Source: Dipteris shenzhenensis
Lineage: Eukaryota
DNA: 64,000 nt
Reading direction: 5' to 3' (one strand)
NCBI GenBank assembly: GCA_047967505.1
Contig: CM106538.1
Made by a program: the position numbers and the translations under genes
The notes under the pieces: generated by a model
Seen by the model: only the letters and a program-made list of their open reading frames with translations
Told to the model about the DNA's origin: nothing
Database searches by the model: none
In this document: positions 14,970-39,700 of the stretch, one piece after another
Layout: the number at the start of each line of letters is the position of its first letter
Position numbering within the stretch: position 1 is the first letter of the stretch

Positions 14970-15226
14970 TGACAAAATATGAAGAGGGGAGAGGAGAAGA
15001 GTGGAGATGAGGAGAGAGCGCACAGCTAGAGAGCACACCACAAATGACTAAATGTACACTAGATTTAGTTGAAAAAATAGAATATATACAAACCCTTTTA
15101 GGGTTAGGGTTAGGGGATCTAACCCTTTCCTTTATAGCACTCTATAAGGTTAGTGGTATGCACATATGATCACGTGATGGTGCTATGCACACATGATCAC
15201 ATGATGTTGAGCATGAACTCTCAACA
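14970..15226 (-). repeat. 3' LTR of Copia B1
   Basis: Direct repeat of 22219-22475, 23902-24158 and 30492-30748. Confidence 0.95.
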
Positions 15227-15314
15227 CCTTCCCTCAAGATCAATATCATGAAGTAGGCCTTCCCTCAAGATGATGATTCTGGGGAATCGAAGAAGGACTG
15301 AGCATTACATTCCA

Positions 15315-18300
15315 TCACACCCCTTTAATGGGAATGTCCTTCCTCTGTGTCAAACCAAGAGCTAGTCGGTGTTTCTCGAATAGCTCTTTACCGAGTGGTT
15401 TGGTAAAGATGTATGCAACATTTTCTTTGCTATCACAATGCTGCAATGTGATGTCACCAAATAACACCCTTTCTCTGATGAAGTGCTCTTTGACATCAAT
15501 GTGCTTTGTCCTGGAGTGATATACTAGATTTTTGGCCAATGCTTGAGCTGATTGATTATCACAGTATATTGTTGTTGGCTTTGACTCATCAAAGTAATCT
15601 ATTTTTGACAATAGTCTTCTGAGCCATATAGCCTCACATGCACTTGTAGTGAGTGCTCTATATTCTGCTTCAGTCGAAGACAAAGAAACAATTGGCTGTT
15701 TGTTTGAAAACCATGATATAGCACCTTGACCAAGGAAAAATGCATATCCCTGTGTCGATCTCCTAGTCTCATGATCTCCGGCATAGTCACTGTCAGTATA
15801 TCCATGCAACCATGGATGACTTCCTCTATATTCTATCCCAAAGTGTCTTGTACCTTCATGTATCTTAAGACTCTTTTGGCTGCATTCCAATGAGACTGTT
15901 TTGGATTTGCCATAAACTGTGCTAGTGAGCTTACTGCATAACAAATATCTGGCCATGTGATTGTTAGATATATAAGAGATCCGATGAGCTGCCTGTAGTA
16001 TCTGTCATTGACTGTAGGCTTTTCTGAATCTTTAGTAAGTTTCAAACTCTGTTCCTTGGGAGTGGCTACAATCTTGCAATCTACCATATGAAACTTCTTC
16101 AGGAGACTGTCAACATACTTGAGCTGACTCATGAATGTGCTATCTAAATCTCTCCAGAACTCAATTCCAAGACAATAGTGCATAAGTCCAAGATCTTTCA
16201 TGTCGAACTCTGCAGATAAGTCTTGTTTCAATTTTCTAATGAAGCTATCCTTGCTTCCTGTCACAATCAGATCATCTACATACAAAAGTGCAATAATAAT
16301 GTCTTCCCCTTGAACTTTGTAGTAGAGAGTATGAGCTGCATTGGATTTCATGTATCCTAGATCATCAAAATACTTGTTAATTCTGCTGTACCAACTTCTG
16401 GGTGCTTGTTTTAAGCTATAGAGACTTTTCTTGAGATGGCAAACCTTTTTCTCCTTTCTTGGTTCAACATAACCTGCTGGTTGTTGCATGTAGACTTCCT
16501 CGTCTAGATAACCATTGAGAAATGCATTCTTAACATCAAGCTGATACAAATTCCATATGTGAGTGTCACTAGTGATATCAAGAACCGTATGGAATCCATC
16601 TTTGCTACTAGAGCATAAGTCTCATCATAGTCTTGATATTGTTGTGCAAATCCTTTCGCAACTAATCTGGCTTTATATCTCTAAATACTGCCATCTGGAT
16701 TGTACTTTACTTTGTATACCCATTTGTTGGCTATGGCCTTCTTTCCTAGTGGAAGGTCGCATAATTCCCAAGTGTTATTTTTATAGAAAGTATCCATTTC
16801 TTCATTCATAGCAGTTTGCCATTCTGGCTTGTCTACTCAATCTTCGAAGTACACTGGCTCTTCTGTAGCCATGATGGTAGTCATAAGAGCATAGTTGGTG
16901 GTTTCCACCTAAATTGCTTTGCCTTTTTGAGCATATGTCAATCTAGCTGGAGGTCTGCTTTCCCTGGTAGACCGTCTGAGCTGCTGTGCCTCTGCTTGGG
17001 GTGTTGCTGGAAATTCTTGCTCTTCTTCATCAACCTGTTCTATAGATGACTGTGAAGTCGATGCTTCTATATCCTGTGTAGGTGAGGTTTTCCATTCTGA
17101 TTCCTCATCAAAGATTGCATCTCTGGAGATAATGACTTTGTGGTTGATGGGATCATACAATTTGTATGCTTTGCTTTCTTCACTGTAGCCAACCATGATG
17201 CATTTGCGTCACTTCGCATCCAATTTCCTGCGATGATCATCATGTATGTGAGCATATGCTATGCAACCAAATATGCAGAGATGCCCAATGCGTGGCTTGT
17301 GTCCAGTGAATGCTTCATAAGGAGTCATACCTTGTATCGGTTCGGTAGGAAGCCGATTAAGCAAGTAGTTTGCTGTAGCTATTGCTTCTACCCAATACTG
17401 ATTTGGAAGATGTTTTTAATTAAGCATTGCTCTAGCACTGTCTGCTAAAGTCCCATTCTTCCTTTCAGCTCTTGCATTCTACTGAGGAGTATCTGCACAT
17501 GTGAATTGCCTTTGAATGCCGTGATTTTTGCAAAAGTTCATGAATGCTGAAGACATGTATTCACCTCCTCTGTCTGATCTCATGACCTTGATCTTTCTGC
17601 CTATTTGGTTTTCTACCATGGCTTTGAATTTTTGAAATCTGGAAAACACTTCAGATTTCTCTTTCAAAAAATAGACCCAACAATATCTACTGTAGTCGTA
17701 GATGAAGGTCAAGTAATAAAGTGAACCATTGATGCTTCGGGTCTGGGCATAACCCCATACATCTGTATGAATCAAATCAAGAATACCTCGTGCACGAGAG
17801 GTACTTCTGACAAAGTTGGTTCGCTTTTGTTTGTGGAAGTAGCATGCTTCGCAAACCTTTCCAAGAAACTGTAGCTTCAGAATCCCAATTGCCATATTCT
17901 GATTCCTGAGATCTAACAAGCACTTGAAGTTGACATGACCATATCTCTTGTGCCATTTGGCAGATAGTGGCATCTGTTGCATTGGAGCTGACATGGCATG
18001 CTTATCTGGTACTGTAGCTAGCATTCTATATAAGCATCCTTCCTTGACACCACTAGCTGACATCTTTTAGATTTGTCTCTGATAGTGCATTCATCACCAT
18101 CGAAAATGACTTTGTAGTTGTGTTCCATCATTTGACCTACTGACAAAAGGTCTTGCTGAGCTTCGGAACATAGAGCACATCTTTGACTAATCCTTTTGTA
18201 CCAGTGAAATTGTTCATAGGGATAACACCTGTCCCTTGAACCGCATTCGGTGTATTGTCTGCTGTGTAGATGACATTTTTCTGTCCTTCTAATGGTTTCA

Positions 18301-19567
18301 TCTCTGTGAACCATTCTTGATGATTTGTCATATGAGATGATGCACCGCTGTCGATGTACCAAGGATCCTATTCCACTTGGTTGACTTGATAGCTGAAATC
18401 CTCTTTGGGATTGAAATCAGTGTCTAGGTGCATTGTATCAGTCTGATGCGATTCCTCGCTTGCAAAAAACATATTTCCATGTTCATTTACAAAATGACTG
18501 ACTAGAATGTCCACCACAATGATTTCCTGTACCTCGAGAATTCCCGCGATTACTGCTAGATTGACCGCCTTGGTTGTATTGCTTCTTGCAACAATCTGTT
18601 TCATAGTGTCCAAACTTGTGGCAGTAGTTGCACTGGATGTTTGACACATTGGTGGATGCATTCCCTCGTCCTTGAAATCTTCCTCAATTGGAATGATTTC
18701 CTCTTTGCTGATTATGATGTTGTTGAGGATGATGTTGATGCTGATGCTGATTGTGACTTTGATTTTGTTGATGATGACCACTTTTTTGGTGTGATCTACC
18801 TCTATTTCTGCCTTTGCCTCTGCTTCTATCTGAAGCTGTGAATGCCTGATCATTAGAATGACCTTTATGTGCTTGAATGGCTTGAGCCCTAAGTTCTTCA
18901 CCAAGTAGAACTGACTGAAGTTCTTCCAGTGTCGGAATTTGCCATTGGATGGCAATACTCTGGACTAGATTCTCATATCCCTCTCCTAGTCCATTCAGGA
19001 TTACTTGAACCATTTTTGTGGGGTTCATAGTTTCTCCTGCTGCTGCAAGTTGATTGTTGTAGTCTTTGATGCGGAGTACATAAGCATGACCGGTTTCACT
19101 GTTGTTGCAAAAACTCTGGTTGATCTGGTTTCTCACGGTGAGAATCCTGGATGTGTTCTTGGACTCGTAGAGAGCTGCGAACATATCCCATGCTTCTTTC
19201 AACGTCTTGACTGTGTTGAGCTGTCCTAGCATGACATCTTGCACATTTCGCTTGATCAGGTGATAGGCATACTTGTCTTTCTTATCCCATTTTTTGCTTG
19301 AGCTCGGGCAATGGCAAGATCTGCTACTGGTGTGGAAACTATTTGTGTAGATGCAGATCCCGTTGTAGATTCCGTTGCTGGTGTTGAGACAACAGATGGA
19401 GTAGAGCTACTGGTGGCTAGATTGTCCAATGGTCTAGGTGTAGACCCATCGACGTACTCCCATTTGTCCTGAAGCACAAGAATGGTCTCCATTCGGTATT
19501 TCCATGTACCGTAATTGGAGTTGTCTAACTTAGCAGATGCCTCCAGATTGAGGTTACTAGTCGACAT
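15315..19567 (-). pseudogene. Disrupted gag-pol of Copia B1
   Basis: Gag AKLDNSNYGTWKYRME, protease WYIDSGASSHMT, integrase LIHTDVWG and RSDRGGEY, RT LYVDDL, RNase H TKHIDVKEHFIRE; many frameshifts and stops. Confidence 0.95.
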
Positions 19568-20344
19568 GGTGCAAGAAATGTACTCAAAAGTGTCGTGAAG
19601 ATCTCTGTATGAATCAACTGCAAATACACTGAATATGCTAAGTGAAATCTCTGTACCGTCACTGAAGATAGAACTGCAATATATAAAATCTGATCTGTAT
19701 TACAAGGCTTGTGGCAATGATGCTAGGAATAGCCAAGAGGCTTTACAAGGCTGAAATGATGTGCACGATGCCGTGAGATAGCCAAATAGGCTTTACAATG
19801 GTGGCATGTGTGTGTGAAATTAAATGCTATCTGCCCACTGAATCAATCTGCAATGCCTCTGTACTCTGAAGTCTGCTCACTAAACTAATGAACGTAAGGT
19901 TTCAGGTAATGTAATGATGTGAAACCGTATGTGAGCATATGGATTCGAGTAGGTACTAGTCGAGAATTTCGGGCATAGCTTAGATTGGCAACTTGGGGAA
20001 ATTCAAAGCGTCCCCTCTATGGCGATCTAGTCTACTCTCATCTAGATCTAAACCAACTGTCGATCGATGAAAGAACATCAAATAAATCCTTTTCTTTTGT
20101 TTTTTTAAAGTGCTGGGTCAGATGCGTCGATGTAGAGGCAAACGTGCGTGAAGGAATTGGTTTTGTCGGCAAGGCTCAAATGTGAGTGTAACTTGCACCA
20201 AAATGTGTGCATGATGTGACGAGCGCGTAGAGCACGAAAAAACGAGTGACTTTCCTTTTTGGAACGCCTTCAAATTCTTCCTGGATCAAGCGATATGACT
20301 TGATCTAGGTGGAGGGGCAAAAGGAGTGCAAATGGTGCTCAATG

Positions 20345-20910
20345 ATGATGTGTCACTGAGTCACATGCAGTGATGATGTGGCACTGTGCTTAGCAAGAGG
20401 TGTGCTAGTGAAGCCTTGTGCTGAGGTGGCAGGAGTGGTCACATGAAGTGCCTGTGGAGCACTGTGTGTGCCTGCAGAGGTCAGTGCTGATTGGACAGCT
20501 GAGGTGGCACTGCTGAGGTGGCAGAGGTGACGTGGTAGTGATGATGTGGCTTGATGACATGGTTTGATGATGTGGCCTGATGACATGGTACCAATGACAT
20601 GGCCTAATGATGTGGCACAGGTGATGTGGCTATCGATGATGATGTGGCAGTCATTAATGATGTGGCAACTAAGCTGGCAGTGATGATGTGGCAGTGATGA
20701 TGTGTCTTGATGGATAAGATGATGTGGCACTTGATGGTGACATGGCAGATAAGGTCTGCCATGTGGCTAACTGTGGATCAACCAGTTAACCCAAGGTCAT
20801 CTTCAGCGGACCCTAGTTCTATCCTATCTGCCACATGTCTGACTGCTGGAGTCTGCTGATGTGGTAGACGAAATGCCACATGGCCTCGACAGCAAGATGA
20901 CATGGCTTGT
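20345..20910. promoter_or_regulatory. Array of about 20 TGACGTGGC-derived motifs (G-box/ABRE/hex-like) in the B1 leader
   Basis: Repeated GATGTGGC, GACATGGC, GAGGTGGC and GACGTGGT; the first two are the CpG-deamination products of GACGTGGC. Regulatory function is inferred. Confidence 0.55.
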
Positions 20911-21498
20911 TAGAATCTCCTAGATGCTGATGAAATCTTTGAGATTTCGTTGTCTTCTCCGAAGCTAGAGCCGTTGTTGGTTGGACGTGCGTTGTTGTGC
21001 ATGGGCACTTTGAGGAGCCACGCTGGAGTTGGCTATGAAGCTTGTCTGTGCACGGAGGAGCCGACGTCGTGAGAGCAGCGCATTAGGTGAGTTGTTCGTT
21101 GGTTGAGTAGCCACATGGGCTCTAACGGATGGCGTTGTGTTGGAAAGGGAGCTTGTTGGTGATCGGACGTTGTTGCATGAGATGAGGGAGCTGCCTCTCA
21201 TTCGGAGGTTTGCGTAGAGCTTGTGGGCTAGCTGTGAGGAGACGCTTGCTATTGAAGGCCCGTGAGCACCTTCGTGAACTGGGCTCATTGGAGTCGGCTC
21301 GTAGGAGCATTGTAGTTGCACTGCCTTGTCGCCCGTGATCGTTGAAGGCTCTGAGGGGCTAAGCGAGTCGTTGAAGATTCCGTCGGAGGCTATAGCCCGT
21401 GAGCGAGTCGGTGGTGCTGGGCTTGTAGGAGTTGTAGGTAATGCTCGTAGCTTTGGCGCTATTTGCTGGAGCAGGCCCGTTGGCTCTGGTAGGCCAAA

Positions 21499-21923
21499 TC
21501 CTCCTCCTCCCTCGCTGGCCAAATCTCCCTCAAACCCCAAAATGAGCTCGCTTCCAAGATCGGTAGCCTCGGTGAAGCCCATATCTCCATGAGAAAATCC
21601 ATCTCCAAGGTCTCTGATAGCCCCTAATATGGCCTTGACCGCGTGAAATACCTCGGCCCCTTCTCTGGTGAGGCCCCTAGCTACCTCACTGGTGAGTTCC
21701 CCGGTGACTATGGCTGGGACACCACTGGGCTCTCTGCTAACCCCGAGACCTTTGCCAAGAATCATGAGCTTGAGGTCATCCACTGCAGATGGGCTATGCT
21801 CGGAGCTTTGGGCTGTGTCACCCCTGAGCTTCTGTCCAAGAATGGAGTCAAGTTTGGCGAGGCTGTGTGGTTCAAGGCTGGTGCCCAGATCTTTGCTGAA
21901 GGCGGGCTTGACTACCTCGGTAA
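21499..21923 (+). pseudogene. LHCB: Captured fragment of a light-harvesting chlorophyll a/b-binding protein gene (Lhcb1/2 type), antisense to B1
   Basis: In frame: [140 protein letters not shown]. Lacks start codon and C-terminal half; conserved W codon is TAA at 21625. Confidence 0.97.
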
Positions 21924-22218
21924 AGAGTTGCCAAAATTCCTATCTCTCTTTCTCTCAAAACCAGTAGAGCATTAAGCGCTCTCTCTCACAATAAGAATGT
22001 CTCACAAAATGAATTAAAATCCTCACAAGGAAATTACTCAATCTCACACAGACGGAAATCTCTCTCAATGAACATAAATTTCTATCAAAGAAATGAAAGG
22101 TGGTCTCTTACCGGAAGTGGACTCTCACGGAGAACACTCAAGAGAACTCTCAATCTCACACTCTCTCTCACAAGAAGGATGGCGCCTCAGCAGAAGGCAA
22201 AACCATGCTTTGATACCA

Positions 22219-22475
22219 TGACAAAATATGAAGAGGGGAGAGGAGAAGAGTGGAGATGAGGAGAGAGGGCACAGCTAGAGAGCACACCACAAATGACTAA
22301 CTGTACACTAGATTTAGTTGAAAAAATAGAATATATACAAACCCTTTTAGGGTTAGGGTTAGGGGATCTAACCCTTTCCTTTATACCACTCTATAAGGTT
22401 AGTGCTATGCACATATGATCACGTGATGGTGCTATGCACACATGATCACATGATGTTGAGCGTGAACTCTCAACA
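22219..22475 (-). repeat. 5' LTR of Copia B1
   Basis: Adjacent to PBS (plus strand GCTTTGATACCA) and TSD CATGG. Confidence 0.95.
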
Positions 22476-23269
22476 CATGGTGCCCAAGGGCACACACAAT
22501 CTGATGGTGCCTAGCTCGAGGGCGGCTGCGGCACCCAAGGGATGTGTGGCAAAATCACTATACCTGAGGATCACATGGTTCTCGAGGGATTTGAGTGGTC
22601 AAGGGGGATGTATGAGGGGTTAGAGGGGGGTGGCATAGTGACTAGGAAAATTTAGCTTGTTAGCATAAGAAGTACGTGATTGAAAGAAGTGAAAAGGAAA
22701 GCTAGAGATATTCACCTCTTTTGCTGAGTTCAAATCAAGCAACCATGTGTACTTTCTCTTCATCCACCAACCTCTCTCTGATCGGGTCATGTAAGTCCAT
22801 CTCTTCATCATCATCAACTAGTACATTATGATCTTCGAGGTCATCATCCATGTCATCAGTCTCCTTGTGCTCTACCTCTTTTTCATAGCCTATGGTTAGA
22901 TATGCTTGAAGCTGAAAATAGGCCATGAAATGGGAGGTGAAGGGAACTGTAGGATGGTATCCTCTTAGTAGAGGGTATTTGGCACATCTAATTTTCCAGG
23001 TAAGAAAGCCCTAAACCCCAGAATTTTAGCCTCTCGATTAAAAATTTCCAATATTTTATATTAATATATAAATATACCTTCAATAAAAACATCCGTGATG
23101 GCGTCGATGGCAACATGCATCCTGCCATGACTTGCAAGCAAAGGAGACAGAGGCTACAGGATAGGAAAGCCAAAAAGCTTGGTCAAGGCACAAGGAACAA
23201 ATTGCAGGTTGAGGAAAGCAATGACACAGTATCAAAATAGCAAAATGGCAAACACTTTTGCAACATTTG

Positions 23270-23545
23270 CGAAGAGAGGGTGGGAGAAAATGGAAGGGGA
23301 GAAGGAGAGAATGGAAAGGGGAGGACTATGGGACAGAATGGAAGGGAGGGATGTGAGGGACAATGGAAGGAGGAGAGGTAGGAACCGAAGGGGGGATGTG
23401 GGAGAGAACGGAGGGGGGGTTACGGAGAGAATGGAGAGGGGATGAGAGAGAGGGAGGGGTGGAAGAGAGAGGAAAGGGTGGAAAGGGGGTGTTTTAGGGT
23501 GGAGAGAGGAAAGGGGTGGGAATGGAAGGAGAGCGGGGGAGAGGG
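23270..23545. repeat. GA-rich low-complexity tract
   Basis: Purine-rich degenerate GGAGAG/GAAGG units; similar tract at about 30890-31510. Confidence 0.7.
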
Positions 23546-24243
23546 GATGCTTGGGGTGCCAACTCCCTTTAGTAATAAAACCCATCAAAATCTTGAGTTT
23601 GAGATGGATTTAGCAATATGCCATGAGTAGAAATCATTCAAATTAACATGGTTGTGTTCTACACTAAAAGAGCTTCAAATATGTCTTTACACCTTGAAAT
23701 TTGTGTGACACATGAAAAAGTTACATTAATTTGAACGGAGATGGTTTTTCATATTTTAGTGTATTTTTCTTTTTACCCCCCCTCGTCCAAAAGACACCCC
23801 CCTCCCCCCCGCTTGGGCCTCACATATTATGAAAAATATGTACAAATCTTAAAATCTTGCATATTTTTCAAGGTATATACCTTATATTTTGAGGGTGGGG
23901 GTGACAAAATATGAAGAGGGGAGAGGAGAAGAGTGGAGATGAGGAGAGAGGGCACAACTAGAGAGCACACCACAAATGACTAACTGTACACAAGATTTAG
24001 TTGAAAAAATAGAATATATACAAACCCATTTAGGGTTAGGAATAGGGGCTCTAACCCTTTCCTTTATAGCACTCTATAAGGTTAGTGCTATGCACATATG
24101 ATCACGTGATGGTGCTATGCACACATGATCACATGATGTTGAGCGTGAACTCTCAACATCTTCCCTCAAGATACACATCATGAAGTAGGCCTTCCTTCAA
24201 GATGATGATTCTAGGGAATCGAAGGACTGAGCATTACATTCCA

Positions 24244-27200
24244 TCACACCCCTTTAATGGGAATGTCCTTCCTCTGCGTCAAACCAAGAGCTAGTCAGTG
24301 TTTCTCGAATAGCTCTTTACCGAGTGGTTTGGTAAAGATGTCTGCAACATTCTCTTTGCTATCACAATGCTACAGTGTGATGTCACCAAGTAACACTCTT
24401 TCTCTGATGAAGTGCTCTTTGACATCAATGTGCTTTGTCCTGGAGTGATATATTGGATTTTTTGCCAATGCTTGAGCCGATTGATTATCACAGTATATTA
24501 TTGTTGGCTTTGACTCATCAAAGTAATCTATTTTTGACAATAGTCTTCTGAGCCATATAGCCTCACATGCACCTGTAGTAAGTGCTCTATATTCTGCTTC
24601 AGTCCAAGATAAAGAAACAGTTGGTTGTTTGTTTGAAAACCATGATATAGGACCTTGACCAAGGAAAAATGCATATCCCTGTGTCGATCTCCTGGTCTCA
24701 TGATCTCCGGCATAGTCACTGTCATAGTATCCATGCAACTGTGGATGACTTTCTCTATATTCTATCCCAAACTGTCTTGTACCTCTGATGTATCTCAAGA
24801 CTCTTTTGGCTGCATTCTAGTGAGACTGTCTTGGATTTGCCATAAACTGTGCTAGTGAGCTTACTGCATAACAAATATCTGGCCGTGTGATTGTCAGATA
24901 TATAAGAGATCCAATGAGCTGCTTGTAGTATCTGTCATTGACTGTAGGCTTTTCTGAATCTTTAGTAAGTTTCAAATTTTGTTCCATGGGAGTGGCTGCA
25001 ATCTTGCAATTTGCCATATGAAACTTCTTTAGGAGATTGTCAATATACTTGAGTTGACTCATGAATGTGCTATCTGAATCTCTTTAGAACTCAATTCCAA
25101 GACAATAGTGCATAAGTCCAAGATCTTTCATGTCGAACTCTGCAGATAAGTCTTGTTTCAGTTTTCTGATCAAGCTATCCTTGCTTCCTGTCACAATCAG
25201 ATCATCTACGTACAAAAGTGCAATAGTAATGTCTTCCCCTTGAACTTTGTAGTAGAGAGTATGATCTACATTGGACTTCATGTATCCTAGATCAGCAAAA
25301 TACTTGTCGATTCTGCTGTACCAACTTTTGGGTGCTTGTTTTAAGGCGTAAAGACTTTTATTGAGATGGCAAACCTTATTCTCCTTTCCTGGTTCAACAT
25401 AACCTGCTATTTGTTGCATGTAGACTTCCTCGTCTAGATAACCATTGAGAAATGCAGCATAAGTCTCATCATAGTCTTGACCATATTGTTGTGCAAATCC
25501 TTTTGCAACTAATCTGGCTTTGTATCTCTGAATACTGCCATTTGGATTGTACTTCACTTTGTATACCCATTTGTTTGCTATGGCCTTCTTTCCTGGTGGA
25601 AGGTCGCATAATTCCCAAGTATTATTCTTATACAAAGCATTCATTTCTTCATTCATAGCAATTTGCCATTCTGGCTTGTCTACTATGTCTTTGAAGTACA
25701 CTGCCTCTTCTGTAGCCATGATGGTAGTCATAAGAGCATAGTTAGTGGTTTCCACCTGAATTGCTTTACCTTTCTGAGCATATGTCAATCTGGCTGGAGG
25801 TCTGCTTTCCCTGGTAGACCGTCTGAGCTGTTGTGGCTCTGCTTGGGGTGTTGCTGGAAATTCTCACTCTTCTTCATCAACCTGTTCTGTAGATGACTGT
25901 GAAGTCCATGCTTCTATATCCTGTGTAGGTGAGGTTTTCCATTCTGATTCCTCATCAAAGATTACATCTCTGGAGATAATCACTTTGTGGTTGATGGGAT
26001 CATACAATTTGTATGCTTTGCTTTCTTCACTGTAGCCAACCATGATGCATTTGCATGACTTTGCATCCAATTTTCTGCGATGATCATCATGTATGTGGGC
26101 ATATGCTATGCCACCAAATATGCAGAGATGCCCAATGTGTGGCTTTTGTCCAGTGAATGCTTCATAAGGAGGCATACCCTATATCAGTTTGGTAGGAAGC
26201 CGATTAAGCAAGTAGTTTGCTGTAGGTATTGCTTCTGCCCAATACTGATTTGGAAGATGCTTTTCACTAAGCATTGCTCTAGCACTATCTGCTAAAGTCC
26301 CATTCTTCCTTTCAGCTCTTGCATTCTATTGAGGAGTATCTGCACATGTGAATTGTCTTCGAATGCCGTGATTTCTGCAAAAGTTCATGAATGCTGAAGA
26401 CATGTATTCACCCCCTCTATCTGATCTCATGACTTTGATCTTTCTGCCTGTCTCGTTTTCTACCATGGCTTTGAATTCTAGAAATCTAGAAATCACTTCA
26501 GATTTCTCTTTCAAAAAGTAGACCCAACAATATCTGCTGTAGTCGTCGATGAAAGTCAAGTAGTGAAGTGAACCATTGATGCTACGGGTTTGGGCATAAC
26601 CCCATACATCTGTATGTATCAAATCAAGAATACCTCATGCACGAGAGGTACTTTTGACAAAGTTGGTTTGCTTTTGTTTGCTGAAGCAGCATGCTTTGCA
26701 AACTTTTCCAAGAAACTGTAGCTTCGGAGACATGGCATGCTTATCTGGTACTATAGCTAGCATTCTATATAAGCATCCTTCCTTGACACCTTTTGCTACT
26801 AGCTGACATCTTTTGGATTTGTCTCTGATAGTGCATTCATCACCGTCGAAGATGACTTTGTAATTGTGTTCCGTCATTTGACCTACTGACAAAAGGTTTT
26901 GCTGAGCTTCGGAACATATAGCACATCTTTCACTAATCCTTTCATACCAGTGAAATTGTTCATAGGGATAACACATAGTCCCTTGAACTAGATTCGGTGA
27001 ATTGTTTGCTGTGTAGATGACATTTTTTTGACCTTCTAATGGTTTCATCTCTGTGAACCATTCCTGATGATTTGTCATGTGAGATGATGCACCGCTGTCG
27101 ATATACCAAGGATCCTGTTCCACTTGGTCGACTTGATACATGTAATCCTCTTTGGGATTGAAATCAGAGTTTAGGTACACTGTATTAGTCTGATGCATCC

Positions 27201-27924
27201 TTGCTTGCAAGAAACATATTTCCATGTTAATTTGCAAAATGACTGTGACTAGAATGTCCACCATGATGATTTCCTCTGCCTCGAGAATTCCCTCGATTGC
27301 TACTGGATTGACCACCTTGGTCGTACTGCTTCTTGCGGCAATCTCTTTCATAGTGTCCAAACTTGTAATAGTAGTTGCACTGAATGTTTGACACATTGGT
27401 GGATGCATTCCCTCATCCTTGGAATCTTCCTCGGTTGGAATGATTTCCTCTTTGCTGATTTTGATGTTGCTGAGGATGATGCTGATGCTGATGCTGATTC
27501 TGGCTTTGATTTTGTTGATGATGACGCTACCTCTGCCTTTTCCTTTGCCTCTACTTTTGTCTGAAGTTGTAAATGCTTGATCATTAGAATGACCTTTTCA
27601 AGCTTGAATAGCTTGAGTCCTGAGTTCTTCACCAAGTAGAACTGACTGAAGTTCTTCCCGTGTTAGAATTTGCCATTGAATGGCAATACTCTAGACTAGA
27701 TTCTCGTATCCCTCTCCTAGTCTATTGAGAATGACTGGTGTTGTGACAACAGATGGAGTAGAGCTACTTGTGGCTAGATTGTCCAATGGTCCAAGTGTAG
27801 ACCCATTGACATACTCCCATTTGTCTTGAAGTACAAGAATGTTCTCCATTCGGTATTTCCATGTACCGTAATTGGAGTTGTCTAACTTAGCAGATGCCTC
27901 TAGATTGAAGTTGCTAGTCGACAT
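24244..27924 (-). pseudogene. Disrupted, internally deleted gag-pol of Copia B2
   Basis: Same domains as B1; deletions relative to B1 in gag (near 27735), pre-integrase (near 26727) and RT (near 25457). Confidence 0.93.
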
Positions 27925-28679
27925 GGTGCAAGAAATGTACTCAAAAGTGTCATGAAAAGCTTTGTATGAATCAACTGCAAATACACTGACTATGCCAAGT
28001 GAAATCTCTAGACTATGCAATATATAAAATCTAATCTATATTACAAGGCTTGTGGAAATGATGCTGGGAATAGCCAAGAGGATGTACAAGGCTAAAATGA
28101 TGTGCATGATGCCATGAGATAGCCGAATAGGCTTTACAATGGTGGCATGTGTGTGTGAAATCAAGTGCTATCTGCCCACTGAAACAATCTGCAATGCCTT
28201 TCAACTCTGAAGTCTACTCACTGAACTGATGAATGTAAGGTTTCAGGTCATGTAATGATGTGAAATCGTATGTGAGCATATGGACTGGGTACTAGTCGAG
28301 AATTTTAGTCATGGCTTAGATTGGTAACTTAGGGAAATTCAAAGCGTCCCCTCTATGGCGATCTAGTCTACTCTGATCTAGATCTATACCAACCGTCGAT
28401 CGATGAAAGAATAGCAAATAATTCCTTTTCTTTTGTTCTTTTTAAGTGCTAGGTCAGATGCGTCGATGTAAAGGCAAATGTGCATGAAGGAAGTGGTTTT
28501 GTCGATGAGGCTCAAATGTGAGTGTAACTTGTGCCGAAATGTGTGCGTGATGTAACAAGCGCGTAGAGCACGAAAAAATGATCGACATCCTTTTTGGAGC
28601 ACCCTCAAATTCTTCCTGGATCAAGAGATACAACTTGATCTATGTGGAGGGGCAAAAGGAGTGCAAATGTGCTCAATGA

Positions 28680-29235
28680 TGATCTGTCACTATGAGTCAC
28701 ATGTAGTGATGATGTGGCACTGTGCCTAGCAAGATGTGTGCTAGTGAAGCCCTATGCTGAGGTGGCAGGAGTGGTCACATGAAGTGACTATGGACCACTG
28801 TGTGTGCCTGCAGAGGTCAGTGCTGTCTGGACAGCTGAGGTGGCACAGATGATGATGTCAGCAGATGACATGGCAATGATGATGTGGCACCGTGATGTGG
28901 CCAGATGATGTGGCTTACTGATGTGGCAGTGATGATGTGTCCTTGATGACGTGGCAAGTGACGTGGTAGCTGAGCTGGTAGGGGTGATGTGGCAACCTCA
29001 CGGGGCTACTGACGTGTTAGATAAGGTGATGTGGCAAGTGTATGAGACTGCTGATGTGGCAAGCACGACTGACGTGGCAGATAAGGAGATAAGGGTGCCA
29101 TGTGGAGACCTATTGATCACACCTTGGCTAACCTAGACTGGGTTAGATAAACTAAGGTTAAACCTCACCTAGGATTGGCTTGACCAACCCTACCACTGTG
29201 GTTACAGTTTGTGGATTGGATAGGGTGAGGTGGGG
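28680..29235. promoter_or_regulatory. Array of TGACGTGGC-derived motifs in the B2 leader
   Basis: Several intact TGACGTGG(C) copies (about 28947, 28959, 29070) and GCCACGTG, among many GATGTGGC/GACATGGC variants. Confidence 0.55.
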
Positions 29236-29538
29236 TGCCACGTGCCTCATCGTGGGCAGCCAGAATCTTGTCAAGATTTTGAAAAAATCTTAGAGATTTC
29301 ATCTCCTTCTTCATTGGAGCTTGTTGGATGGAGGAAACAGCCTGTGGATGAGCCTGCAAGAGGGTCATTGCTAGAGGCGTAGGTCGGGCAGTAGCTCCTT
29401 AGAGGTTGTAGAAGCACTTGGTTGCAGCCACGTAGGAGAGCCTCCCGCCGAGGGAGTCCATGAGTATGGAGGCGCTAGATGGCCCTTGATGAAGCGAACA
29501 AAGGTGTGGATGCCTCAGGTTGCTACAAGACGACAAGG

Positions 29539-29885
29539 AATCCGTGGAGCCTGTGCACCGTGATGCAGGTCGAGGAGGTAAGATTGCTCCCTATTTGGGT
29601 GTGCACTTTCTTCTTCTACACTGTGTATGTGCAAGGAGGGACATTCTTCATTGAGGAAGGGCTGTTGGCCGAGGTGGTGCTAGCTCCTCCGATCTACGAT
29701 TGCCTTTTGGTGCCGATTCTGAAGAAGTGTACAGTTCTTGGGAGCGATAGGATAGATGGAGTTCTTCTATGGAGAGGCACCAGAGACACTGCGAAGCTTA
29801 GGGAGCTCCTTCTACGGAACAACAATATTTGGGCAATTATCTGATTTCGGTGCTGGTGATGGTGGTGACGAGCATCATAAGTGGC
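29539..29885 (+). pseudogene. NPF: Captured, internally deleted fragment of an NRT1/PTR (NPF) transporter gene, antisense to B2
   Basis: Collinear NPF motifs: NPWSLCTVMQVEEV / RLLPIWVCTFFFYTVYVQGGTFFIEEG / PIYDCLLVPILKKCT, then in shifted frames IG*MEFFYGEAPETLRSLGSSFY / LGNYLISVLVMVVTSI. Confidence 0.92.
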
Positions 29886-32800
29886 TATGGTGGAAGCAAT
29901 TCATTAGCGGTGGCTAGGAGTTGTAAGAGCTACTGGAGCCATTGTGAGTCATAGCCGTGGCTGTCAAGCAGCTCGTTGTGTAGATCTAGGCTTGCTGGAG
30001 AGCTTTGTTGCAGCTGCCTTAAGCATTGTGCTTAGACCTTAGGAGGCATTGCTGTTGTGGAGTAGAGGCTAGACTAGTAGAGTCTGTAGGTCACTGTAGA
30101 AGTTGAGGCTGCTACCACTCTTCGAAGCATGCTGCTAGATGGGTTGTTGGAGTAGATTTGTTGAGGAAAAACCGGCCAGAACCTCTCTCTCTCAGTCATC
30201 AAGGATAAGAACATCTCTATCCCAAAGAACTCTCTTATAGAAACAATGAATCTCTCAAGAAGAATTCTCCCTATCTTTCTCTCTCTCTCACCCGGAGTAG
30301 AACTATGAACGGAATGAATCTCTCTCAAAGAACTCTAAAAGGAGATGATGGAAATCTTCTTTCAATGGACGGAATTTTCTCTCAACAAAAGAGAATGGAA
30401 CACTCAATCTCTATCGATCTCTCAATCTCTCAATTACTCTCACATGAAGGATGGCAATGCCTCAACAGAAGGCAAGGGAGCTCTGATACCATGACAAAAT
30501 ATGAAGAGGGGAGAGGAGAAGAGTGGAGATGAGGAGACAAGGCACAGCTAGAGAGCACACCACAAATGACTAACTATACACAAGATTTAATTGAAAAAAT
30601 AGAATATATACAAACCCATTTAGGGTTAGGGCTAGGGGATCTAAGCCTTTCCTTTATAGCACTCTATAAGGTTAGTGCTATGCACATATGATCACGTGAT
30701 GGTGCAATGCACACATGTTCACATGATGTTGAGTGTCAACTCTCAACAAGGGGGAGATGAAATTTTAATATTTTCCCCTTACATATTTGAAAATTTTAAA
30801 GGAAATCCATGCATATTATATATGGATCTTGTCCCCCCATACCCTAGATTTTGGACTAGGGTAGTAACATATTACATATTGAGTTGGCACCCCAGGAGGG
30901 GATGGAAGAGGTGTGGAGGAAAGAGGAAGGGGGGTATGGGAGAATTGAGGAAAAGGTTTGTACCTTGAGTGGTGGAGGTGGTGGTGATGGAAGGGGAGGT
31001 TGTGGCGAAGGAGGAAAAAAGGAGTGGTGGTGGAGGGGATGGAAAAGGTGGGTGGAAGGTGAAGGATAGACGGGAAGAGCTTGACAAAAAAAGTGGGGGG
31101 GGGGGGAGATAGACGAAAAAAGTGGTGGTAGAGACGATGGAAAAGGCTAACAGAAGGTGTAGGATGGAAAAGGATAATGGTAGGTGTAGGATGAAGGGGA
31201 GGAGCTTGATGGAAAAAGTAGTGGTGGTTGTTGTGGGGGGGGCAGATGGACGAAAAAAGTGGTGGTGGAGGGGATGGAAAAGGTGGACAAAAAGTGGAGG
31301 ATGGAGGAGAGGAGCTTGGCAGAAAATTTGGTAGTGGTAGGGAGGAGCTTTGATGGAAAAAGTGGTGGTAGTGGGGGTGGAATTGGTGGATGAATGGTGG
31401 TTAAGAGAAAATGGAGGTGGATGGAAAATTTGGAGGTTTGGCAATACTTGGAGATGGAGGAGAGATGGTAGTGGCTTGCAAAAGTGAGGGGAGACAAATG
31501 AGGGGCAGGGGGGCTTGTTTGGTGGTGTTTTTATAGGATGTGAGGGGTTTTTTTCTCTCGATCTCCTTCCATTCTTTCAATTGAAAAATAGTATCTATCC
31601 CACAAGTCCCCTCTGAAAGATCATAGTGGTAGGGAGAGAAGGAATCTAACACTAGGAATGGAAAGGAAAGATAACAAGCATAATGGAAATGAAATGGAAA
31701 GAAAATGAAAGCAATGGACAAGTACGCACATGAGATGAAAGAGCTTGATGTTGACTGATATTTTAGACAATAGACAAGTACAACATTATATAGTGTGCCA
31801 CTAAACTCTAGAAAGTCACAATGTCTATGGGATATCTCCCAATATGACACGTGGCATGTCTAGGAGTCACTAGACTATAAAATCACACCTAGACCACCTA
31901 GAACACTCATTTTAGATTCACTTTGGCTTCATATTCCAACACCCCCCCATGAAGGCAAGGTGAAAGACTACTGGAATGGAACCAAGAATAGAACATGACA
32001 ATGACAGTCATCAAACTGTGCACCCAATGAAACACAGAGGCTAAAGTCTAAGCATGTTCCAAGCACTCTCATGGCTTGAGGCTCAACATGCTCAGAGGCT
32101 CATGTTATAGCATGGCTACATGACCAGCTCATTGGTCTAGAAATACACCAACATCTTGAAACTCGGCTAGGCCTGATAACGAGACCTATCAAAGCCAATA
32201 CATATGGCTCCCATAGTACATCCCCCCTTGGCTTCATAACAGGACATGTTAGGAAGCCACACACCAAAAATAGGAAAACCAATACATCTTTTTAGGAGGA
32301 CTATCCAAGGCAGAGGACCTTTAGACTTAATGAAAACCAAACACTCAATACATATCATTTTAGGGGGACTACCCAGGGTGGAGAACCCCAAAATACATCA
32401 AGCTATAGGAATAATAAAAATAGATCTCTTAGGAGTAACAGATGTTCTCCAAGTAGCCACTGCACATGTGTGCACATCCATGTGAGACGATGATGATGTC
32501 GAAGAAGCACTAGGTAGGAACGCCCCAAAAGAGATGTGTTGGTGAAGTCCATGGGGTACCTAGATGGAGCACTCACATAGTCTTGGGAATCAAGCTCTTG
32601 GTTATTGTTCTTGTTGTGTGAGTAGGTGAATAAGGTGAGTCACACTGACTCAACCATTGTTAGTTCTTATCTACTATGTATGGTTGTGACCTTAGTAGTG
32701 CTTAATTGTATTGTGTGGGGTGAATATGAGCTGATTGTGGAGGAGGCTGTTGCGCCCTCCTCGTTGCTTCCTATATCTCTCTTCTTGTTTTTTCTTAATA

Positions 32801-33708
32801 TGGTATCATAGCTACTGTTCCTTGCCTTCTGGTTGCCCAATTGCTTGTGGAAGCTTGCGGGAGTGCTTCTTCTACTCTAAAGCTTCGAAGTGATGAGAAG
32901 AGATCTCGTTTTTTGGACTGAAGTAGCAATTTCCAACTTCTGTTTGGCTTGGGAGCTATCCAATTGATGTCTTCTTGCTAAGGCGAGATCACTATTACCC
33001 ATAGGTTGCTCGTGGGAGATGTATTTTGACAAAACAAAACTCGTTTTTATTGTTTGGGTGTGATAGAACAGAGCTGATCTCTTTTTTAGGACAACTACTA
33101 CTTGGTTTGAGCCAAGCAAGAGGTATACATAGCAGTAAGAAGCAAAAACGCCTCTCCAAACCTCATCGCCTAGCTCTCTGGAGGTTGTTTGTGAAATGTC
33201 TCTCCAAAGCTCATTGCCCAGCTCTCTGGAGGTTGTTTGTGGCTGAAAAAAACTCTCCTACATCTCCTATCAAGTAAGGAGAACCTTCAGCTTGAAGATC
33301 TCGTTTTTTCTCCTAGACAGCTTTTGGAGACTTCAAAAGTGATATATGACTTGCTTTCTTCCTTTTCCAGCACCAGCACCCCAAAGGTTTGCTACATCCT
33401 CATACATCATTTTTTGTGGAGTCTTAGTCTCTCTATAAGCTACGAGGACTCTCGTGTTCCTCCAAACACAAAAAGTGCTACTACTGTTTTTTTGTTCAAA
33501 AGTGATCAAATTGTCACTTTTCGGACTGTTTATTTCTCAAATTGTGTGGATTTGGATGCTAGTTTGAACTGACAAGTTGGAGGCAAGTATACAAGCTCCG
33601 ACTTTGCTTTTGGAACAAGTTCATTTGGATTTACTGTCAAAAGTTATGAGCTTGGGAAAATAAAAAAAAGTCACAGTTTACAACTTCTGTCAAATTGTCA
33701 GATGTAGT

Positions 33709-36700
33709 TGAAACCAAAAGGGTATTTCTTTTCACACAAAGTCACCACTTAATCGATTGGAGAAGAACACAATCACATCATGAAAGCAACAACAAACTGG
33801 GTACAATCTCCCCCCCTAGATGAGTTGCTCATGCTTCCTCATCTAGAGTATTTATGATATTTCATAAAAGCACCAAGGAGCCAAAATTATCCCTCTCATC
33901 CAAAAATGAGGGATTTGCTTTACATAGCCATCTTAGGGCCCAAAATGAATTATGTCCACTACAAAATATATTGCTCAAACTTGCAATAATAAAACAAATA
34001 CAAAATTTGGCCCATGGCCATATATAATGCACTGTGCGACACCTCGATCGGTACCCTCGCACTAACTCCAATCCTCATTATGAGTTCCATCACCTGTACT
34101 CAAGCTGCCAATTACATTAGTTATTAACAATCGATTGAACGAATTACCGAATCAACCAATCCCAACATAACTGTGCTCAAAGCATAATAATCAAGCACAA
34201 CACCAATAACACTAGCGACATCAGTATTAACATGGAATCACCCACAATACCGACCATCTAGCATGGCAAAATACAAGCTAGTCAGGCGTCCCCAACTAAC
34301 CACACAAAGTATCCACTAACCCTCGCCGCGTCCGGTGCACTCCTATGGAGCACTTTGCCATAGTCATACTTGACTAAAGTAATAATATCCAAAGCAAGAT
34401 ATATCATAAAATATAATTTCCGTAACATCCCTCTTGCTTGGATTGCAACTAACCTCAGTTGCGTGTTTGATTATAGGAACTAATGAGGTTTGGGAAAGCT
34501 CGAGAAAACCGCTTAGGCATCCATTGAGCATCATCTCTTGGATGATTCTTAAATTTGAGCAAGTATTTTTTAATATAGACATTTCCTTTTTGGGTCGAGG
34601 TCCGGCTGTTGATGATCAATAATGCAGTCAGGTTCTAGAATTTCTTCTTCATCAACAATCAATGGAGCCTCTTCATAGACAGGATGAATAGGTAAAGTTC
34701 CTCTGAAGGGCTTTAAAAGGCTGATACGGAAAGCATTATGTATTTTCCAATTATCAGGTAATTCAAGCCTATAAGCTAGATCATTGATTTTTTGAATCAC
34801 CTTGAATGGTCCATAAAGATGTGGGGACATCTTGATTACTGGCCATTTCTCAACACTCTTCAATCTTCTTTTCTCAATCTGAAGAAGTACATAATCACCT
34901 TCTTTAAAAAGCATGTGTTTCCGTTTCTTATTAGCTTGTTTTGTGAACTTCTCTTGAGCGATTACAATGGCTTCTCAAACCTCTTTGAGAATATTTTGAT
35001 AGTCATGGGTAAATGCATCTGCTGCCTCTACTCTATGGGTCAATCATGTGATAGGAATAGGTAAAACCTTCCCATGGATAATCTCAAAGGGTGCTCTTCC
35101 AGTTGCAAAATGAGGAGTATTATTATAAGCAAACTATAAGAGATGAATGTATTTGTCCCAAGTCTTTGGTTGACTTCCCGCATAAGCTCTTATCATATCC
35201 AAAATAGTATTGTTTGTAACCTTAGTTTGTCCATTCGATTCTGGATGAAAGGCTGATGAGAAATCTAACTTAATGCCTAAATTATGAAATAATGCAGTCT
35301 AGAAATTACTACACAACTTCGAATCTTGATCAAACACTATAATCTTTGGCAAGCCATGATGAACAAAGATATGCTTAATGAATAAATGTGCAGCTTCCTG
35401 AGCTGTTAAAGTCTTCTTGCATGGGATGAAATAAGCTTGCTTACTAAAGCGATCTACTATCGTCCAGATCATATCATTTTGATTTGCTGTAGTAGAAAAA
35501 CCACCAGTTATGAAATCCATAGAATCTATTTGTTCCCAAGATTGTGTAGGAATAGGCAAAGGCATTAGCAATCCTGGGGTCTTTCATTTGTAACTCTTGA
35601 TCTTCTGGCAAGTGATGCATTCGGCTACAAAATTAGCCACATCTTTTCTTATAGTAGGCCAATGAAATTCTCTTGCTATCATTGTAAAGTGGCAGTCACT
35701 CCCCTATGTCCCATATATGGTGGTTGGTGCATTTCCTCCATTACAATTTGTCTAGAGGGTCGAGTGATGCATAATTTCTTTTGATAAAAGAGGTATCCAT
35801 CATTGCATGAAAAGTCCAACATAGGATTCCAATTGTTATTCTCTAATTTGTTCCATATATCAGAAAAGTTTGGATCCCCTTGATAAGAAATCTTCATACC
35901 TTCAAAAGGGTGGGTCTCTATAGCAGTGATGTGATTAATACTTGGCTTTCTGCTAAGAGCATCAGCAACTACATTCCCTTTTCTAGGTTGATACTAAATC
36001 ATGGGCTGAAAACTCTGTATAGATAATGCCCACTTGATATGCCTATCGGATATAAGTGGCTGAGTCAACAAATGCTTGATACTTTGCTAATCGGTTTTGA
36101 TAAGAAACTCAGATCCCATCAAATAATGTTTCCACATTCATAAGGCATGCACAATAGTGGTTAGTTCTTTATCATATGTGCTATAATTGCATTCCGTTGG
36201 TTTTTAATTTTCGTCTCTCATATGCTATTGGATGTCCATCTTGCATGAGTACGGCTCTAATTCCATATCCACTAGCATTGGTTACAACTACAAAGAATGG
36301 TCTAGAGAAATTGGGTAGTTGCAACACAAGAGCTTGTGTGAGAGCTTCTTTCAAAGCTGTAAAAGATTTATCTTGACGCTCAGTCCATAAGAAATGCTTA
36401 GCTTTTCTAAGAAGGTCTGTCAATGGATGTGCAATGTATGCGAAATTTCTGACGAACTTTCTATAAAAGCTACACAATCCCAAGAATGATCTTAATTCAT
36501 GTATATCTTAGGGCTTAGGCCATGTGACTATGCACTCAATCTTCTTTGGATCTACTCGAATGCCATCGGCAGATACAATGTGACCCAAATACTCTATCTG
36601 ATTTTGAAAGAAACTGTTCTTTTCACGATTTATGTATAATTGATTTTCTTTCAAGAGTGAAAAGACTAGCTTCAGATGTTCCTTATGCTCCTCAACATCT

Positions 36701-39700
36701 TTGCTAAACACCAGAATATCACCGAAAAATACTACCACACAATCTTGGTGTTTAAAAAAGATTTGGTTCATCATTCTACTAAAAGTAGCTGGAGCATTAG
36801 TTAGCCCAAAAGGCATATTAGGAACTCATAATGTCTCGTGTGAGTTCTAAAGGCAGTCTTGTATATATCCTCTTCTACCATACGAACTTGATGATAGCCA
36901 GATTTGAGATCTATCTTACTAAAGACCTTGGCCCCTTTCAATTTATCCAAAAGATCATCAATCTTGGGGATTAGATATCTATTCTTCACTGTGATTTTGT
37001 CTAGTGCACGATAGTCTATGCACATTCGATAGGTTCCATTTTTTCTTTTTGACTAATAAGACAGGTGCTCCATAAGGAGAACTACTGGGTCTTATCAATA
37101 TTCTCTCTATCAGTTCCTCCACTTGCTTTTGAATATCCTTTTGTTCTAGTTGATTGACTCTATAAGGAGCCTTGCAAGGTGGAGTATTGCCCGATAGAAT
37201 TTCTATCCTATGATCTTCAGGTCGAGAACTTGGTAGTCCAGGTGGTAAATCCTCTAAGAAACAATTAGAAAATTGAGAAAGAAACTTTTGGTGTGTAGGC
37301 TTAGTGTTTGGCTGAGTAGCCGTTATCGTATTCACCAAAATTAGATATGTCTTCTCATGTTTTCTAATTGCTCTTTTGGCTTGTGTGTGGTTGAGTAAAG
37401 GACTGATCTCAGGTCTCATTGAGCTTTTCAGACATATTTCTTGTCTGTCCTTCTCAATCCACATTTGATGTGAATCGTAATCTATCTTAGGATTATATTG
37501 ATGCCTCCATGGCATTCCTAAGATGATGTCCACTCCCGGTAGGGGTGCCACTAGAAAGTTTCATGTATCCTTGTAGGGTTTGATTGAGATTTCAAGATTC
37601 TTGACTTCTATAGTGCAATTGTACTTTGTTTTGGTAAAAGCAGCTTTAACCTTATAGTTAGATGGGAAAGACTTTAGGTTTAGCTTTGCTAAGGCTCTTT
37701 TCGAAATGAAATCATGTGTGCTACCATCGTCATGCAGAATAACAACCTCTTTGCCATTAATGAAACCTTTCATTTTTAGAAGAGCATGACAATTATACTT
37801 ACGTCCCTCTTGTTTGGCTGCTTTGTCGTCAATCATGTGCACTTTTGCCGTCAGGGTCTTCTTTCTTTCAAGACACTCAGTGGCTATGTGTCCCACCTTG
37901 TTGCACTTGAAACACCTTATTTCTTTCTTTAGAAAATTTCCACCGTTCAGCTTCAAAGGAGAATCTATATTCTGTGGAACAAAACCATTTTTAGATTTAA
38001 AGAAGGGCTTTTTATTAAATTTCTTTTTCTTATGGAAGGGTACATGCCATTCATAATCTTTCCCTTCTTTTAGGATTCCATTCTTCCTTTCACAATTCAT
38101 TGCAAGAGAAATTGCAGAGCTCAGTGAGCGAGGATGAAACATGTTAATCTTGGCTCTCAACTTAGACTTTAGACCTGCCACATACTTCCTGCGTTGATCT
38201 CGCTCATTAACTTTCTCTAAGGATTGTAATTGGATCAACGTTTGCGAAAATCTATCAGTATATGTGGAGATTGTTTCCTTATCGAACTGCCTAAAAGTAT
38301 CCCACTGTTGTCTAGCTTTTGCTTTGAAATGTGAGGGAAGAAAATCTCTCTTGATGAGCTTTTGAAAATACTTCCAAGATTTTGGTCGCTTTTTACTGTG
38401 CTTAGTGATGTTCCACCAAAGTGTAGCACTCTCTACTAAATGATTTGCAGCACATTTAATCTTGTCTTTTTCAGAGAATTTCTCCCATGAAAAATAATTA
38501 TCTAACTGATTGATCCAAGACAAGACAGTGTGTGCTTCTTTCTTTCCATCAAAATTTTGAAATGAGAAAAATTTTCTACTTATCTTACTCTCCTTCCTTG
38601 AATTATGTGCTCTCAGTGTGGCTTTGACTGTCTTGATAATAAGATCATCCTCAGAATCATCGTCAGATGATACATTGTCAGATGAATGCCTCTTTCTTTT
38701 CTTACTATTGATTTTCTTTTCCAATCTCTCCCTATGCTCACGCTCATTGGCCAACTATGCCTCTGAAGTGCATCTAACTGCTCTTGGAGTGTGGGTGGTT
38801 GTGGCTGGTGTGCCATGATAATGCGATAAGTACAAATAAAGTGGAGCAGAGAAAGATAAGGATACTAAGTGTATGATAATTAAACGAATGAAAAAGTGTA
38901 ATTCGAGTGTATGTGGTAAGAAATGGATGGTGGAAAATACTAAGCGTATGAAATATAAAGCAAAAGAAATCAATTATCTCACTCTTTGATCGGAGGTGAA
39001 AAGGACTAGAGTGGGAGATATGTGACCGATGATGTCACTCGTAGTCATCTTTGCACTCGAGTGATCTCCAATTAATTGTATGGGTTCGTGGTTCCAATCG
39101 CCTTCTTGATTCAAGTGTCTTCAGATTTTGCTTTGCTCTCTTTTTTTTTTTTTTCCAATGCCTTTGCTTATCGGTGGAGTAGCCTCCCCCTTCTGTGTTG
39201 AAGATCGCCAAACGTCTTCTTTTTAAAAAAAATAAAAATAAAATTTAGAGCCTTTACCCTTGCTCCATCTATATGGTCAAAGGAAAACTTTGACTTGTGG
39301 ACGCTAAAGTCTACAGGAACGACATTGCCAATTCTAAAGGAAAAAGCGAACTGTCTACAGATATAGTCTCTGAGAGGCCGGTCAGCTGCTCTTGATTGCG
39401 GTGCAGTCAATGGACTGTGGGTTACACAGCGTAGGCATACAGAGATGCAGCAGAGAGGTGCGTGTCGGGCGGGGCAGAATCGATTCCCAATGAACTTCAA
39501 CAAGGGCTACCAAAGTAATGACAGCCTCTGTGGCAACACGACAGCACTGCATGTGAACAGAGACTGTCGATGGCTGTAGATCTCAGACTCTGCACTCTGG
39601 TGCACGCAATGGGTAGCTGTACTGTGAGAATTGAGTAAAGGTAGCGCCATCGAGGATATCAGACTTGGTCAGAGACTATTCAGTGCTCTGAAATCTGTGA

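Follow-up and report, generated by a model that had tools for sequence, protein, structure and literature searches.

Gene-fragment capture by long terminal repeat (LTR) retrotransposons of plants is long established, with Bs1 among the known cases (PMC13317346, PMC2774510, PMC3726574). In maize, 425 intact LTR elements from at least 189 captures have been reported, including 36 copia elements in 15 families, and the base rate of capture is ~1% of intact elements (PMC2774510). The ideas of cross-talk through small interfering RNAs (siRNAs) and of camouflage have also been published (Lisch, cited in Muyle et al.). Hypervariable untranslated regions (UTRs) arising from abnormal strand transfers are described in Tat/Ogre elements (PMC7004042), and the telomeric retrotransposons of Drosophila repeatedly captured fragments of PIWI-interacting RNA (piRNA) pathway genes, with antisense piRNAs hitting the host gene (PMC13534243). 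The main texts of the capture papers cited here say little on where within elements capture occurs, or why. Here, we describe two sister copies of a Ty1/copia family, B1 and B2, in a 64,000-nucleotide stretch of contig CM106538.1 of Dipteris shenzhenensis (assembly GCA_047967505.1; hereafter, the window). Their 5′ leaders hold different decayed host gene fragments, LHCB in B1 and NPF in B2, in one and the same interval. In the literature searched, no copia family was described with sister copies holding different cargo at one leader position.

This locus shares features with each of the described systems. As in Bs1 and the captures of maize, rice and sorghum, host coding pieces lie between the LTRs without terminal inverted repeats (TIRs) or target-site duplications (TSDs) of their own, are non-functional as proteins and carry non-random mutations acquired after capture. 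In its published description, Bs1 has three fragments per element, fused in sense into an open reading frame (ORF), whereas each sister copy here holds one identified antisense fragment. In B1 and B2, unlike in Bs1, the cargo sits in the 5′ leader and gag-pol is retained. Tat/Ogre elements (Ty3/gypsy; Macas et al. 2009 in PMC7004042) likewise have a non-coding region that varies between copies, with short tandem repeats and illegitimate recombination or abnormal strand transfer. That region is a 3′ UTR made of tandem repeats, however, and not a copia 5′ leader in which the host fragments are beside, rather than within, the array. TART and its relatives in Drosophila (nxf2, piwi and aub fragments) exemplify recurrent, independent capture into the untranslated regions of related retrotransposons. 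These are non-LTR elements of an animal, and their cargo is nearly always a silencing-pathway gene, present in all copies of the family and expressed as antisense small RNAs. In contrast to the TART-nxf2 type, the cargo here consists of LHCB1 and NPF pieces and differs between B1 and B2. Finally, the Sirevirus captures of maize (Muyle et al.) are also exon fragments in copia elements, for which siRNA cross-talk and camouflage were proposed, but they show no orientation bias, and we found no fixed position or slot described for them.

Two sister elements and the variable interval of their leaders

The 257-bp LTR of the family occurs four times in the window, as the 3′ and 5′ LTRs of B1 (14970-15226 and 22219-22475) and of B2 (23902-24158 and 30492-30748); a fifth, partial and diverged copy is at 48230-48433. 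B1 thereby spans 14970-22475 and B2 23902-30748, both on the minus strand. The LTRs are direct and read TGTTG...TGTCA on the element strand, i.e., they have TG...CA ends, with a 5-bp TSD. The LTR pair of B1 is 98.05% identical (252/257) and is flanked by a perfect duplication, CATGG at 14965-14969 and 22476-22480. The pair of B2 is 94.9% identical (244/257), and its flanks, GGGGG at 23897-23901 and AGGGG at 30749-30753, match at 4/5 positions. Based on their own TSDs and the unequal divergence of their LTR pairs, B1 and B2 are independent insertions of one family.

The internal features are also common to the two elements. A primer-binding site (PBS), TGGTATCA[A/G]AGC, abuts the 5′ LTR in both: TGGTATCAAAGC at 22207-22218 on the element strand of B1 and TGGTATCAGAGC at 30480-30491 on the minus strand in B2. 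This site is of the tRNA-Met type, presumably complementary to the 3′ end of the initiator tRNA. At the other end, a purine tract, GAGGGAAGG/GAGGGAAGA, abuts the 3′ LTR in each element. Upstream of its 3′ LTR, each copy has the polypurine-tract motif TCTTGAGGGAAGG two times, with a spacing of ~40 nt (15227-15290 in B1 and 24159-24215 in B2, minus strand). On the minus strand of B1, the Pfam domains follow in the order Retrotran_gag_3/gag_2, gag_pre-integrs and rve (E 5.4e-13), SH3_retrovirus and RVT_2 (3.2e-47). The order gag, integrase, reverse transcriptase (RT) of B1 and B2 is that of Ty1/copia. The gag-pol region of B1 occupies 15315-19567 on the minus strand. Since pol is split into many short ORFs, both elements are dead. 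Gag-pol and the gag-proximal leader are 88-94% identical between the two copies; the latter segment in B1 (19568-20499, minus strand) is ~89% identical to B2 and is also found in sequencing runs X3 and X6. A preliminary description of the window had stated that B1 and B2 share LTRs, PBS, gag-pol and gag-proximal leader, and the LTRs, PBS and alignment confirm this.

The start of gag near 19567 in B1 puts ~2.65 kb between it and the PBS; a leader of about this size, which both elements have, is long by copia standards. Its PBS-proximal part is GAGA-rich in both copies (21949-22206 in B1, where it is purine-rich on the element strand, and 30184-30479 in B2; minus strand). Further toward gag is a 13-nt tandem array, at 20500-20780 in B1 and 28840-29119 in B2 (annotated with the elements on the minus strand). 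The array of B1 consists of plus-strand TGAYGTGGC units, mostly decayed to TGATGTGGC. In the window, TGAYGTGGC matched 20 times against 0.93 expected, and 19 of these 20 matches were in the two leaders, on the plus strand in arrays at 20374-20728 and 28710-29078. Just two array units keep the CpG form, TGACGTGGC; all others read TGATGTGGC, which is compatible with CpG decay. The intact unit presumably resembles a bZIP-type ACGT site.

In both elements, the GAGA-rich tract and the array enclose an interval over which the two copies cannot be aligned. Using sensitive blastn (word size 7), from which the edges were taken, leader homology stopped at 21948 in B1 and 30183 in B2, and restarted at 20985 and 29332, respectively. 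The variable interval is 964 bp in B1 (20985-21948) and 852 bp in B2 (29332-30183, minus strand). Inside it, the same search returned just 11-19-nt matches between B1 and B2, with E values of at least 3.2. On the array side, the interval is closed by a short segment that is homologous between the copies (20912-20984 in B1, minus strand; 70% identity, E 2e-5). The unalignable stretch of ~1 kb had previously been placed at 20960-21925 and 29310-30170, within ~25 bp of the blastn edges.

No TIRs or TSDs were found at the interval edges; B1 has two weak internal inverted pairs (76% complementarity) and B2 has none. A nested Pack-type transposon as the carrier of the cargo was ruled out, as the intervals lack inverted repeats and duplications at their edges. 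By the same inverted-repeat check, no DNA-transposon ends bound the cargo; Helitron ends were not searched for specifically. Neither host fragment is itself bounded by a TIR or TSD of the kind that the preliminary description had regarded as a sign of later insertion.

The interval also varies beyond these two copies. A diverged, truncated third copy, B3 (47985-48433, minus strand), retains a partial LTR (87% identity), a degenerate PBS and a GAGA leader, with homology breaking off close to the start of the variable interval of B1 and B2. The ~1 kb that follows (46994-47990) is AT-rich, matches nothing else in the window and contains no open frame of at least 80 aa. B3 was dropped as a third cargo case, as it is truncated and adds no cargo. 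The LTR/PBS end and the conserved leader block 20400-20540 are present in sequencing runs of other organisms, which places the family outside this genome as well. In contigs of two other organisms, position 20558 or 20731 is joined to 21979, and 20445 to 22161, with intervening letters possible. Since these contigs link the array side to the GAGA side over the B1 interval, the interval is variable across the family. The LTR-end/PBS pattern had no matches in viral contigs or in metagenome contigs, and a conserved 24-nt leader pattern had none in metagenome contigs; these scans yielded no additional full copy. No sequencing run contained at least half of the words of 20400-22480, and no RNA run was listed among those with matches. 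In four runs, 20890-21449 was uncovered except for one 70-nt bin in X3, which we do not count as evidence.

LHCB and NPF fragments within the interval

The B1 interval contains an LHCB1 (LHCII type 1) fragment corresponding to about codons 10-150, at 21499-21923 on the plus strand and antisense to the element. It was recognized by Pfam (PF00504, Chloroa_b-bind; E 1.6e-23). In tblastn, residues 7-149 of a 266-aa LHCII type 1 protein matched 21493-21924 on the plus strand (75.8% identity, E 2.5e-66), and the best-conserved part reached up to ~91% identity to angiosperm proteins. The fragment has a single in-frame stop, at 21625-21627, where sequencing runs have TGG. Contigs from runs X1 and X3 that represent real LHCB genes matched 21499-21923 at ~95-96%. 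These contigs depart from the window before 21499, continuing into the ATG region, and after 21917-21923, continuing into more coding sequence. The ends of the fragment are fixed by this divergence, as the gene contigs run on unlike the window at both sides. A lack of donor introns would point to an RNA origin; the contigs are collinear with the fragment, and LHCB1 genes are themselves intronless. Many exact 31-mers are still common to the fragment and the LHCB contigs of other organisms. Among the contigs listed, none bridged LHCB into the element.

The junctions of the LHCB fragment have a short repeat. At the left junction (21492-21499), the 8-nt string GGCCAAAT duplicates 21517-21524, located 25 nt inside the fragment. 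Short templated copies of this kind arise in copy-choice and in templated end joining, and the string is compatible with both. A near copy, GCCAAAAT, is present at 21931-21938, just beyond the right junction, and the two strings may be a footprint of microhomology or templated insertion. Inspection by eye revealed no TATA box on the plus strand from the array to the LHCB cargo.

The B2 interval contains a fragment of an NPF/POT transporter at 29497-29876, again on the plus strand and antisense to the element. Measured on full-length NPFs, it covers approximately residues 308-517, interrupted by internal deletions and a frameshift. The fragment matched Pfam PTR2 with an E value of 3e-4, under the gathering score, two PF00854 proteins with 6.6e-7 and 2.1e-6, NPF2.10 and NRT1.1 of the PDB with 3e-4 to 9.5e-4, and a 580-aa NPF with 1.2e-13. 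In tblastn of the 580-aa protein, residues 308-411 matched 29497-29733 and residues 471-502 matched 29732-29827 (81% identical). This alignment contains two gaps (4 and 21 residues), lacks residues 412-470 and reveals a stop together with a frameshift. Each of these lines is weak singly; together, they are consistent with an NPF/POT identity. The best HMMER match to the NPF query, P0126, is a 1658-aa repetitive protein in which a 21-aa stretch matched 15 times, and it was judged spurious on its sequence.

As a control, we scanned with Pfam 131 open frames of at least 80 aa, all outside the gag-pol of B1 and B2 (25 of 156 frames were omitted as already annotated). Just two non-transposon families were found, Chloroa_b-bind and PTR2, with one member each. 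The presence of different decayed host fragments in one leader interval of B1 and B2 is real and beyond chance. Both fragments are on the plus strand and antisense to minus-strand elements; a two-of-two antisense outcome has p = 0.25 in the absence of orientation bias. The earlier assertion that LHCB in B1 and NPF in B2 are antisense to the elements and crippled as proteins agrees with the Pfam and tblastn results and with the stop, deletions and frameshift. Cargo accounts for ~45% of each interval (425/964 bp in B1, 380/852 bp in B2). The distance from the last leader homology is 25 bp for LHCB and 307 bp for NPF, so the two fragments occupy the same slot at the 1-kb scale only.

The differences between the LHCB piece and the gene contigs are directional. 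Among the differences listed, 17 of 21 are transitions with A/T in the window and G/C in the runs, and none runs in the reverse direction. The contexts of these 17 are CG in 11 cases, CHG in 5 and CHH in 1. Judged from these contexts, the decay follows the pattern that arises when the methylated cytosines of a silenced transposon deaminate. Because the transitions are in CG and CHG contexts, similarity to the donor is being lost, not maintained. At least 11 of 24 inferred CpGs of the fragment are lost, and the LTR pair of B1 differs at 5/257 sites, one of them a transition. This comparison hints that the LHCB cargo is older than the B1 insertion, although weakly, as each LTR has only two CpGs.

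The non-genic remainders of both intervals are C/A-rich on the element strand. They are not homologous: their Smith-Waterman score was reached by 21/200 and 35/200 dinucleotide shuffles. Nor do they match anything elsewhere in the window. The B1 filler (514 bp, 20985-21498, minus strand) has a CpG observed/expected ratio of 0.91, compared with 0.40 for the LHCB piece and 0.41 for the whole of B1, and is open in the element sense frame. Indeed, a sense frame on the minus strand extends from 21939 to 20968, stop to stop, over 324 codons and spans the whole interval through antisense LHCB and filler. An opening of 324 codons was reached by 0/1000 shuffles of the interval and by 23/1000 for the filler alone. 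The sense ORF, P0001 (272 aa), matched nothing in Pfam, and its sole match was to a record derived from an LHCB message translated in antisense; its 177-aa filler part had no usable match in the ESM Atlas. Antisense strands of GC-rich genes are often open. For this reason, and because the ORF has no relatives, we do not read the 324-codon frame as a gene.

Origin of the cargo

The explanation that we favor, with slightly more than even confidence, is sporadic and independent capture of gene fragments into a dispensable, hypervariable part of the leader, followed by decay. The middle 0.85-0.96 kb of the leader would be a dispensable, indel-tolerant hypervariable segment, filled in each lineage with unrelated DNA that includes a host coding piece, LHCB1 in B1 and NPF in B2. 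Two routes are likely for the filling: an aberrant transfer of the growing strand, in reverse transcription, onto host nucleic acid that was co-packaged or nearby, or the synthesis of filler DNA in break repair. The fragments would be neutral passengers, antisense, coding for nothing and decayed under transposon-type cytosine methylation, and their position in the leader would reflect tolerance rather than a dedicated device.

Several observations weigh against sporadic capture. Both full copies hold different cargo, and these are the sole host fragments among the 131 frames, which exceeds what sporadic events easily predict; with a base rate of ~1% of intact elements in maize, two of two is notable. 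Homology of the truncated B3 also breaks off at the edge of the interval. Sense is stated to be the usual orientation of transduced sequences (PMC7264820), and both fragments here depart from it. Sense orientation is not strictly defining for transduction, as Muyle et al. report no orientation bias among Sirevirus captures. Over half of each interval is without explanation. Finally, the high CpG ratio of the B1 filler and the long sense frame are unexpected under purely neutral filler.

An alternative is a capture hotspot specific to the family, an account that we consider possible but clearly the less probable one. In such a hotspot, the boundary of the GAGA tract and the array would promote RT pausing, ectopic priming or strand transfer, and host sequences would be swapped repeatedly with no function needed. 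Different cargo in the same interval of both full copies, the lack of other non-transposon families among the 131 frames of a window that holds several other LTR elements, the coincident end of B3 homology and the contigs of two other organisms that bridge the interval all argue in this direction. So does the 8-nt templated copy GGCCAAAT at the LHCB junction, as copy-choice or templated repair predicts. However, there are two full copies and a third cargo was not seen, the fragments are at unequal distances from the boundary (25 and 307 bp), and simple deletions may account for the joints in other organisms. Moreover, tolerated inserts tend to land in the leader, since the element has no other large non-coding part, and the case was picked in the preliminary description for looking striking, which is a selection effect. 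The proposal made there of a dedicated, recurrently refreshed capture site stands in part. Two different acquisitions, both antisense, did enter the same ~0.9-kb interval, but "dedicated" and "refreshed" rest on n = 2, and the fine positions differ. A fuller version, in which the hotspot takes pieces of host mRNA in antisense, sublineages carry different cargo and LTR transcripts are a source of RNA antisense to abundant messages, seems to us rather unlikely.

Less probable again are post-integration events private to each copy, in which breaks in the leader were repaired with filler from cDNA or ectopic genomic templates and the cargo never retrotransposed. The patchwork of cargo and unrelated filler, the templated 8-nt duplication and an orientation that is not the usual sense one would suit such repair, and no listed contig or matched protein record links antisense LHCB to the element elsewhere. 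On the other hand, two independent breaks in the same interval of neighboring copies would need explaining, and the loss of at least 11/24 CpGs against 5/257 LTR differences hints, within the limit of two CpGs per LTR, that the cargo predates B1. We regard as very improbable that the interval is a selected module, whose antisense cargo in an LTR-driven transcript gives double-stranded RNA and siRNAs against host mRNAs or serves as camouflage that makes silencing costly. Both fragments are antisense to the element transcript, and the exact 31-mers common to the LHCB piece and LHCB contigs make matching small RNAs possible. There is also precedent in the Drosophila telomeric retrotransposons, with antisense piRNAs on a host gene (PMC13534243), and Muyle et al. 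have studied the camouflage or conflict model in maize. Nevertheless, neither LHCB1 nor NPF takes part in silencing, methylation-type mutations have eroded the cargo, which also carries a stop, deletions and a frameshift, and both elements are dead. The orientation count is itself expected at p = 0.25, and Sirevirus captures in maize are described as lacking an orientation bias (Muyle et al.).

The surrounding window and significance of the family

The window is a nest of LTR retrotransposons. Nested elements at 31614-46993 are outlined by the repeat pairs 31614-31946/46661-46993 (94.6%), 32579-32800/45447-45671 (91.6%) and 33709-34008/40263-40562 (96%), and enclose a gypsy gag (37564-38754) and a copia pol (41313-45432). 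Another copia family has two plus-strand copies, at 3777-8151 and 61792-63846, whose ORFs are far less broken and include a 501-aa ORF with a zinc knuckle, Pol_BBD and integrase. No host-gene families were found in open frames of at least 80 aa around these two copies. B2 is flanked by C/T-rich low-complexity repeats with 'ttccat'-type units (23290-23560 and 30900-31450, minus strand); these seem to be parts of a low-complexity tract that predates the insertion of B2. A dense low-complexity or tandem region at 57544-58050 contains 15 overlapping copies of a 140-nt repeat at 60-70% identity; these repeats underlie three overlapping minus-strand ORFs without a Pfam match.

Two dead copies with decayed cargo are a lead rather than a demonstration. 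If sister copies with different cargo at one leader interval prove to be a family trait, they would offer a handle on the mechanism of capture. Such a family could separate strand transfer from repair and test the part played by purine tracts and tandem arrays. The models of siRNA cross-talk and camouflage could also be tested cleanly in it. A capture hotspot, if true, would make this family a retrotransposon counterpart of the Pack-type DNA transposons.

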